This document shows positions 36,176 through 36,842 of a DNA stretch of 63,255 bases, piece by piece. This DNA is from Candidatus Poribacteria bacterium. GTDB taxonomy: Bacteria > Poribacteria > WGA-4E > JAJDTR01. The stretch's first letter is position 1; each line of letters starts with the position of its first letter. Where the stretch lies: assembly GCA_965222225.1 (NCBI GenBank), contig CBDCTK010000001.1, positions 1 through 63,255 of the forward strand, read 5' to 3'. The position numbers and the translations under genes were made by a program. The notes beneath the pieces were generated by a model. The model was not told the DNA's origin. It saw nothing but the letters and a program-made list of their open reading frames with translations, and made no database searches.

Positions 36176-36213
36176 AAATAGCCCCGTCCGCGAAACACGG
36201 AAGGGGCTATTTT
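36176..36213. terminator. bidirectional intrinsic terminator
   Basis: AAATAGCCCC.TCCG...CGGA.GGGGCTATTT hairpin between the convergent MOSC gene and tRNA operon. Confidence 0.75.
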
Positions 36214-36218
36214 CATAA

Positions 36219-36293
36219 CATCCCCGACGGGATTTGAACCCGTGTCGCTGCCGTGAAAGGGCAGTGTCCTTGGCCAGGCTAGACGACGGGGAC
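36219..36293 (-). tRNA. tRNA-Glu(TTC)
   Basis: GTCCCCG/CGGGGAT acceptor, CTGCC-CTTTCAC-GGCAG arm, GGTTCAAATCC. Confidence 0.96.
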
Positions 36294-36299
36294 GTAAGG

Positions 36300-36729
36300 T
36301 GAGCCGTACAGGGATCGAACCTGTGACCACCTGATTAACCTACCACACTCACTTTCGTGAGCCAGACAGTTACAAATCTGTTGTAGCCTGGACTATATCT
36401 TTACCCTCAGCGCCACTAAACTGATAGGGTAGGACACGTATAGTCTCTGAGGAGCGAAGGAAGCGTCAAGTCTTCAAAGAAGGCCCTTCTCCCTTGGATA
36501 TCAGCTTACGGCATACTGTTGATATCCCTAACCCAAGGCTCGATTATACGTTACCGCCTTGTCGGCGGATTAGCTTTCCTGCTGGTTGCCCAATCCTTTG
36601 AATTTTCACGCTATGCCGCGTACCAAAGGCTCTAAGGGGATTCCAGCATACAGTGTCCTCCACTTTACATGTTTCCATGTAAAGGCTCCGTGTTAAAGTC
36701 AGATGCTCTACCAACTGAGCTAACGGCCC
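36300..36729 (-). tRNA. tRNA-Lys(TTT) interrupted by a group I intron; exons 36729-36696 and 36338-36300
   Basis: Joined exons (34+39 nt) give GGGCCGTTAGCTCAGTTGGTAGAGCATCTGACTT|TTAATCAGGTGGTCACAGGTTCGATCCCTGTACGGCTCA, a canonical 73-nt Lys cloverleaf. Confidence 0.92.
36339..36695 (-). ncRNA. group I self-splicing intron, 357 nt, no ORF
   Basis: P (ATGCTGGAA), Q (AACCAGCAGG), R (TCAGAGACTATA) and S (AAGATATAGTCC) in order; P3 AGGACAC/GTGTCCT; GAAA-capped P2 and P9; U before the 5' site and terminal G. Confidence 0.93.
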
Positions 36730-36754
36730 ATAACCTCAGCGTGTACGGAACAAA

Positions 36755-36784
36755 ATGATACCGAATCGATTCGAAAAATGTCAA
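36755..36784 (-). promoter_or_regulatory. sigma70 promoter for the tRNA-Lys/Glu operon
   Basis: TTGACA-18 bp-TATCAT on the minus strand, ~25 nt upstream of tRNA-Lys. Confidence 0.75.
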
Positions 36785-36842
36785 CCTCAAAACATGCCGA
36801 CTACGTGGGAACACTCGCCTACCCTAAGTTGCGCGGTGTTAG

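Follow-up and report, generated by a model that had tools for sequence, protein, structure and literature searches.

The question raised by this locus is whether two tRNA halves lying 357 nt apart on the minus strand of a Poribacteria contig belong to a single gene, which tRNA that gene encodes and what the RNA between the halves is. The window examined here is the whole stretch of 63,255 nucleotides from Candidatus Poribacteria bacterium (GenBank assembly GCA_965222225.1, contig CBDCTK010000001.1, positions 1 to 63,255), and all its features discussed below lie on the minus strand. Our reading, to which we give a probability of about 0.9, is that the halves constitute a single tRNA-Lys(UUU) gene into which a group I intron of the bacterial tRNA type, 357 nt long, is inserted directly after the wobble base U34, ahead of U35. 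This reading is based on the anatomy of the gene, its conservation, the covariation of the intron, the identity of the tRNA and the finding of no second gene for it.

Exon 1 (36696..36729) covers tRNA positions 1-34, that is the acceptor arm, the D arm and the 5' half of the anticodon arm, and ends in C32 U33 U34. Exon 2 (36300..36338) begins with TTAATC and extends from U35 to the discriminator A73, including U35-U36-A37-A38, the remaining anticodon stem, a 5-nt variable loop, the T arm and the acceptor strand. Compared with uninterrupted tRNA-Lys genes of Poribacteria, exon 1 is 100% identical to the 5' half and exon 2 is 95-100% identical to the 3' half. ARAGORN folded the joined exons, a check proposed in the first-pass annotation of this DNA, into a 75-nt tRNA-Lys(ttt) cloverleaf with anticodon UUU, and joining the exons of the homologues described below gave the same Lys(UUU) fold in 55 of 55 cases. 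A sigma-70-like promoter sequence (36755..36784; TTGACA, an 18-nt spacer and TATCAT, matching 11 of 12 hexamer positions) is found about 26 nt upstream of the tRNA-Lys 5' end. The gene for tRNA-Glu(UUC) (36218..36294) starts 5 nt downstream of tRNA-Lys, the Lys-Glu pair being kept in 20 of the 20 related loci examined, and is followed by a terminator-like hairpin and a T-rich tail (36181..36196). Promoter and terminator are consensus matches; they fit the earlier proposal that the gene has its own promoter and is co-transcribed with tRNA-Glu, and the two tRNAs are probably part of one transcript.

The interrupting sequence (36339..36695) ends in G and has no ORF of its own, the list of open reading frames holding one 56-aa frame that runs into exon 1. 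A cmscan search with 601 nt (36200-36800), which carried out the covariance-model check suggested in the first-pass annotation, aligned it to positions 1-253 of the 253 positions of the group I intron model RF00028 (45.5 bits; E 2.1e-10), with a 120-nt insertion in P6. This score is below the Rfam gathering score of 50 bits, which is an annotation threshold and not a biological feature; the shorter orthologue of another Poribacteria genome (G065) passes that threshold with 60.2 bits. The internal guide sequence GGAG (36686..36689) forms P1 with the exon bases C32-U33-U34 and the intron nucleotide +1, so that exon CUU pairs with GAG (36688-36686) and U34 stands opposite G36688 as the splice-site wobble. 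All 25 aligned sequences have that U34-G wobble, as expected from the P1 originally drawn for the locus, and the pair formed by nucleotide +1 alternates between U-G and C-G.

The remainder of the core can be followed helix by helix. P2 (36663..36684) has 9 bp and a GAAA loop (36675-36672), and across phyla it shows changes on both sides in 6 of 7 outer pairs and in both inner pairs. The P3 strands (36653..36659 and 36431..36437, the latter in pseudoknot with P7) form 7 Watson-Crick pairs (36659-36653 with 36437-36431), all of them (7/7) retained in the 10 sequences of the genus, and four of the seven covary by both-side changes in the cross-phylum comparison. P4 (36648-36643 with 36585-36580; 36580..36648) encloses P5, P5a and P5b (36638-36589), and P6 (36579-36573 with 36455-36451; 36451..36579) is prolonged by about 117 nt of structured peripheral sequence. 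P7 is made of 7 invariant pairs between its 5' strand (36439..36445), inside element R, and its 3' strand (36391..36397), inside element S, which joins J8/7 and P7; P8 (36404..36429) changes on both sides in 4 of 8 pairs. Finally, P9.0 (36387-36383 with 36346-36342; 36342..36387) surrounds P9 (36380-36363) and P9a (36362-36347), the latter capped by GAAA (36356-36353) and changing on both sides in 5 of 6 pairs across phyla. The terminal G of the intron (omega G, 36339) was constant, a G standing right before TTAATC in 55 of 55 interrupted genes, and the base preceding it varies among G, A and C. The sequence allows only weak pairing of the 3' exon in P10. Every coordinate that the first-pass annotation had given for a complete ribozyme core holds in the sequence: its elements P (36649-36641) and Q (36587-36578) contain the two P4 strands, R (36450-36439) and S (36401-36390) contain the two P7 strands, its P3 strands pair throughout, and its GAAA-capped P2 and P9 correspond to the two loops above, the second of them in the P9-region hairpin. 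Its structural interpretation, a group I intron in the anticodon loop of tRNA-Lys(UUU) at the U34/U35 junction and with terminal G 36339, is hence supported.

We counted base pairs in a hand-written P1-P9 structure including the P3/P7 pseudoknot, with slid pairing partners as control, in one alignment of the 10 genus sequences and in another of 25 sequences from five phyla. Within the genus 98.6% of the cells were paired, versus 32-42% with slid partners, and four pairs had changed on both sides, including a compensatory G-C to A-U change in P6 (alignment columns 156 and 294) and an A-U to G-C change in P9; P6a was paired in only 80% of the cells. In the cross-phylum alignment 88.8% of the cells were paired (32-42% with slid partners), both-side changes were found in 47 of 91 pairs (257 cells), and the covariation score was 0.342 as opposed to 0.06-0.10 with slid partners, none of 500 shuffles reaching a value as high. 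P9 was paired in only 52.8% of the cells of this alignment, a low value that we attribute to misalignment of a helix variable in length. The P1-P9 structure is therefore conserved far beyond chance. Both GAAA tetraloops are retained across phyla, and tertiary contacts in the Azoarcus and Agrobacterium tRNA introns rely on such tetraloops. Among congeners the precursor is 84-95% identical, as compared with 67-78% for the 110 nt upstream and 83-90% for the neighbouring coding gene, which argues for purifying selection on the ribozyme.

Within Poribacteria the intron is fixed in the genus and patchy elsewhere. BLASTN detected it in the nine other genomes of the genus at 84-95% identity (10 of 10 with the genome of the window) and did not find it in one genome of the sister genus or in 30 genomes of three other families. 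When the whole precursor was compared with 176 Poribacteria genomes, 160 gave a match, 12 of them full-length and 148 to the exons only, and 16 gave none. The full-length matches comprise the 10 genomes of the genus, one genome of another family (G065) and one of another order (G158, 78% identity). The exon matches abut, with no intron between them, in genomes G015, G021 and G012, and 18 of 18 sampled exon-only loci contain an uninterrupted tRNA-Lys(ttt) beside tRNA-Glu(ttc); by these comparisons the gene in the window is orthologous with the uninterrupted tRNA-Lys(UUU) genes. Three lineages with the intron and a great majority without it make a pattern that needs several losses or transfer within the phylum.

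To look beyond Poribacteria we scanned 185,579 species genomes with a pattern consisting of the J8/7-P7 motif, a gap, the omega G with the start of the Lys 3' exon, and a T-loop. This yielded 64 loci. A complete but interrupted tRNA-Lys(UUU) gene is present in 55 of them, which represent five phyla or more, and as the scan is biased toward introns sharing these motifs, 55 is a lower bound. Forty belong to Actinomycetota (19 Microbacterium, 18 Agromyces, 1 Microbacteriaceae and 2 MAGs), nine come from records labelled Poribacteria and one from an 'uncultured' record that groups with Poribacteria, two are from Isosphaeraceae, and single cases were found in Gemmatimonadaceae, a Rhizobiales MAG and a Salinibacter MAG. 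Cultured strains of Microbacterium and Agromyces are among the carriers, for instance Microbacterium trichothecenolyticum DSM 8608 and Agromyces cerinus DSM 8595. The nine remaining loci are three uninterrupted tRNA-Asn genes and six that received no call, four of which are cut by the edge of the locus. In a maximum-likelihood tree of 56 introns the sequences grouped by phylum, with support of 100/99 for the Poribacteria clade, 89/89 for Actinomycetota and 99/98 for Planctomycetota, and three singletons fell on long branches where their placement is unsafe. The 628-nt Salinibacter intron has short or antisense frames only. The assembly of Agromyces sp. M3QZ16-3 has two identical interrupted tRNA-Lys(UUU) copies on two scaffolds (L026, L071), and one Isosphaeraceae MAG intron (L036:3249-3651) has an insertion of about 50 nt in the P1 loop region relative to all other sequences.

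The identity of the tRNA needs consideration because ARAGORN with introns allowed (-i) labels the split gene as tRNA-Asn(gtt) i(34,357). That call arises since the window formally allows the splice to be moved by one base: exon 1 would then end in U33, the intron would run to G36340 and exon 2 would open with G36339. A U precedes each of the two possible 5' sites, and a G precedes each of the two possible 3' sites. The homologues decide otherwise. A or C precedes the terminal G in five of them (L037, L049, L051, L064 and L056), so that only the G adjacent to TTAATC is constant, and U33 pairs with A in P1, the wobble with G being formed by U34 only in all 25 aligned sequences. The discriminator is A73, as in uninterrupted Lys genes, whereas the three uninterrupted tRNA-Asn genes matched by chance in the scan have G; orthologues without the intron read CTTTTAA; and the genome already has a tRNA-Asn(gtt) and would otherwise be without Lys(ttt). 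We consider the asparagine assignment hardly credible. Run with introns allowed, ARAGORN also misnames other homologues as Leu(caa), SeC(tca) or Stop(tta); it assumes a different intron position, and this mislabelling is systematic and something to watch for in annotation.

With the gene taken as tRNA-Lys(UUU), it could still be a decaying pseudogene, AAA being decoded in some other way; the Rfam score is under threshold, and the genome is estimated as 94.87% complete, so that a second tRNA-Lys(UUU) gene in unassembled DNA is formally possible. Among the 51 tRNA genes of this genome, however, there is no uninterrupted tRNA-Lys(ttt), the only other lysine tRNA being CTT, and the complete single-contig congeners show one match only. 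When three complete intron-bearing genomes (two Poribacteria and Microbacterium trichothecenolyticum T2) were scanned for the anticodon arm of an uninterrupted Lys(UUU) gene, with up to 3 mismatches allowed, all matches in each of them belonged to other anticodons. In a crude set of 1,178 ORFs of at least 400 aa, AAA is used 16,921 times and AAG 14,591 times, making AAA 54% of lysine codons. Decay is also difficult to reconcile with an intron present throughout the genus, with compensatory changes and with conservation above that of the non-coding flanks, or with exons identical to those of functional uninterrupted orthologues. We thus regard a pseudogene as very improbable, and given that AAA is the commoner lysine codon and that no other gene for its tRNA was found, splicing of the tRNA-Lys(UUU) precursor would be obligatory for the cell.

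That splicing takes place, and that the RNA alone carries it out, we infer from the sequence. In the proposed course of events the gene would be transcribed from its own promoter together with tRNA-Glu, and the intron would fold into the P1-P9 core with its P3/P7 pseudoknot, the two GAAA tetraloops and the lineage-specific P6 extension of about 117 nt forming its peripheral parts. An external guanosine would attack after U34, held in the U-G wobble by the guide GGAG, and the freed 3' OH of U34 would then attack after the terminal G (36339), so that joining of the exons would restore the anticodon loop C-U-U-U-U-A-A. An alternative is that the ribozyme is real but splices efficiently in the cell only with the help of a host protein, which could be a chaperone or a factor specific for the intron. 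The weak P10 would agree with such dependence and the long P6 extension could be a platform for protein binding, with nothing direct in its favour; the core is complete, though, both tetraloops are kept across phyla, homologues without the P6 extension exist, and neither an ORF in the intron nor a linked candidate factor was seen. Protein dependence is in our view improbable, and self-splicing is preferred.

RNA data for the locus consisted of Logan contigs from four runs, not of raw reads, and as these contigs have one depth figure each and give no starts, ends or expression levels, differences in contig depth were set aside. Sponge metatranscriptomes are among the runs in which the locus was found. 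In the RNA libraries of three studies, contigs cross both exon-intron junctions with 0-3 differences, with DNA carry-over possible, and only this unspliced form was unambiguous, no organism-specific spliced product being seen in the RNA-library contigs. A contig from run X6 runs through exon 2 to 36338 and then continues for 17 letters with the end of exon 1, as predicted for the ligated junction. We rejected it as evidence of splicing because identical exons occur, without an interruption, in the genes of many other Poribacteria. A joint of 36293 to 36701, seen in three runs with 29 letters on its shorter side, was likewise rejected; it has 6 other letters in its tRNA-Glu part and is most simply the uninterrupted Lys-Glu pair of another organism.

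The split gene escapes ordinary annotation, as had been anticipated from the sequence. Default ARAGORN and Rfam at the gathering threshold both report the same four ordinary tRNAs in the window and miss the split tRNA-Lys, the intron being lost to a default Rfam run because it lies 4.5 bits under the gathering score. Two RF00028 searches, one order-wide and one of the whole genome of this organism, also returned no hit for it, which shows how easily the intron is overlooked and makes their negative results uninformative about other group I introns in the genome. According to a section of its published description (PMC8450103), tRNAscan-SE 2.0 is not designed for detecting group I introns.

Four types of bacterial tRNA intron, Leu.3Ug, Arg.5Ug, fMet.2Ug and Ile2.5Ug, are listed in a group I intron database, which marks all of them as IC3 (10.1101/2020.01.27.920355), and tRNA-Lys is none of these four classical hosts. 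The pipeline of Williams extended the four types to 21, with 5,292 genes, in the GenBank assemblies of January 2017 (bioRxiv 10.1101/2020.01.27.920355). The isotypes of that 2020 survey appear only in a table given as an image, and 'Lys' is absent from its running text (10.1101/2020.01.27.920355). Because several carrier strains are cultured isolates with RefSeq records, a Lys type is likely to be among the 17 new ones, and under the Williams nomenclature the intron would be called 'Lys.3Ug'. We found no description of a group I intron in tRNA-Lys(UUU) in the text of the literature searched, the Williams isotype table lying outside that text. The literature and genome survey recommended in the first-pass annotation, which had suggested that tRNA-Lys may be a new host, thus gave 55 interrupted genes with the same insertion in public genomes of at least five phyla, cultured strains included, against a background of 21 types already recognised. 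In the strict sense the claim of a new host tRNA is probably wrong, and it is unlikely that the U34/U35 intron of tRNA-Lys(UUU) represents a class of bacterial tRNA ribozyme never described in words. Insertions of 37-49 nt in cyanobacterial tRNA-Lys(CTT), which an excerpt of PMC5733544 terms 'group I introns', were considered and judged far too short for ribozymes.

The closest relatives of the intron are the tRNA-Lys introns of Microbacterium, Agromyces, Isosphaeraceae and the other carriers, which share with it the tRNA, the U34/U35 site, the CUU-GGAG P1, a homologous core that aligns throughout and both GAAA loops. They differ in being 215-330 nt long (one of 628 nt) with a short P6, in contrast to the extension of the window's genus, which is missing from the G065, Actinomycetota and Planctomycetota copies and is lineage-specific. 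The tRNA-Leu(UAA) intron of cyanobacteria and plastids (Leu.3Ug) is inserted at the same position, after the third loop base, and shares the 5' exon triplet CUU ('CUU/a...g/AAAA'; 10.1101/2020.01.27.920355), but its host tRNA, 3' exon and host phyla are different; the likeness noted here is one of position and exon triplet. The introns of Azoarcus tRNA-Ile(CAU) and Agrobacterium tRNA-Arg(CCU) (Ile2.5Ug and Arg.5Ug, subgroup IC3) are, like the one in the window, small ribozymes of the anticodon loop devoid of an ORF, although they lie in other tRNAs and at loop position 5 instead of 3. Placing the window intron in IC3 would be an assignment by resemblance only, to which its insertion in an anticodon loop conforms. 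No homing endonuclease is present in the window intron. On the unlikely reading that the tRNA-Lys intron is a class not yet described, it would have reached five phyla or more with no such enzyme, and the CUU guide pairing that it shares with the classical tRNA-Leu(UAA) intron would suggest that reverse splicing had carried an intron from one site to another.

Other candidate introns were noticed in the same phylum. Group I introns in the T-loop of tmRNA are a known type, as a portion of PMC11915505 states; they belong to the same ribozyme class but differ from the tRNA-Lys intron in host RNA and insertion site. RF00028 matches of 26-37 bits between tmRNA-like T-arm halves (L014-L022) were found in 8 of 20 genomes of genus g6 and in genomes G010 and G063, the loci including the sister genus of the window's organism, and these matches appear to be introns of this kind, ARAGORN having called no gene at them. 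G065 (family f3), which also has the Lys intron, carries a group I intron of about 598 nt behind position 37 of a tRNA-Tyr(GUA) gene (L023:1088-1771; RF00028, 47.2 bits). A 144-aa ORF inside this intron (1147-1581) matches the PD-(D/E)XK endonuclease family PF11645 (E 2.9e-16), and the intron has the look of a mobile element that encodes its own homing endonuclease. In the genome of the window, at contig C2:4416735-4416831, ARAGORN reports a 97-nt 'tRNA-Tyr' with anticodon ATA, which is an unusual call.

These results enlarge the small set of bacterial tRNA ribozymes by one well-supported host tRNA and one new host phylum. They also point to an essential tRNA that default runs of tRNA finders and of Rfam fail to show in a candidate phylum and in dozens of cultured Actinomycetota, where completeness checks and inferences of codon capacity would wrongly give tRNA-Lys(UUU) as absent. 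Within the single phylum Poribacteria, nature provides alleles with and without the intron whose exons are identical, and the cultured carriers provide strains for studying the obligatory self-splicing of an essential tRNA. If the tRNA-Lys(UUU) intron were indeed an undescribed class, which is unlikely, the intron-bearing gene would be the sole route to an AAA-decoding tRNA in these Poribacteria and in Microbacterium, and lysine decoding would depend on the folding of a ribozyme and on the supply of guanosine.
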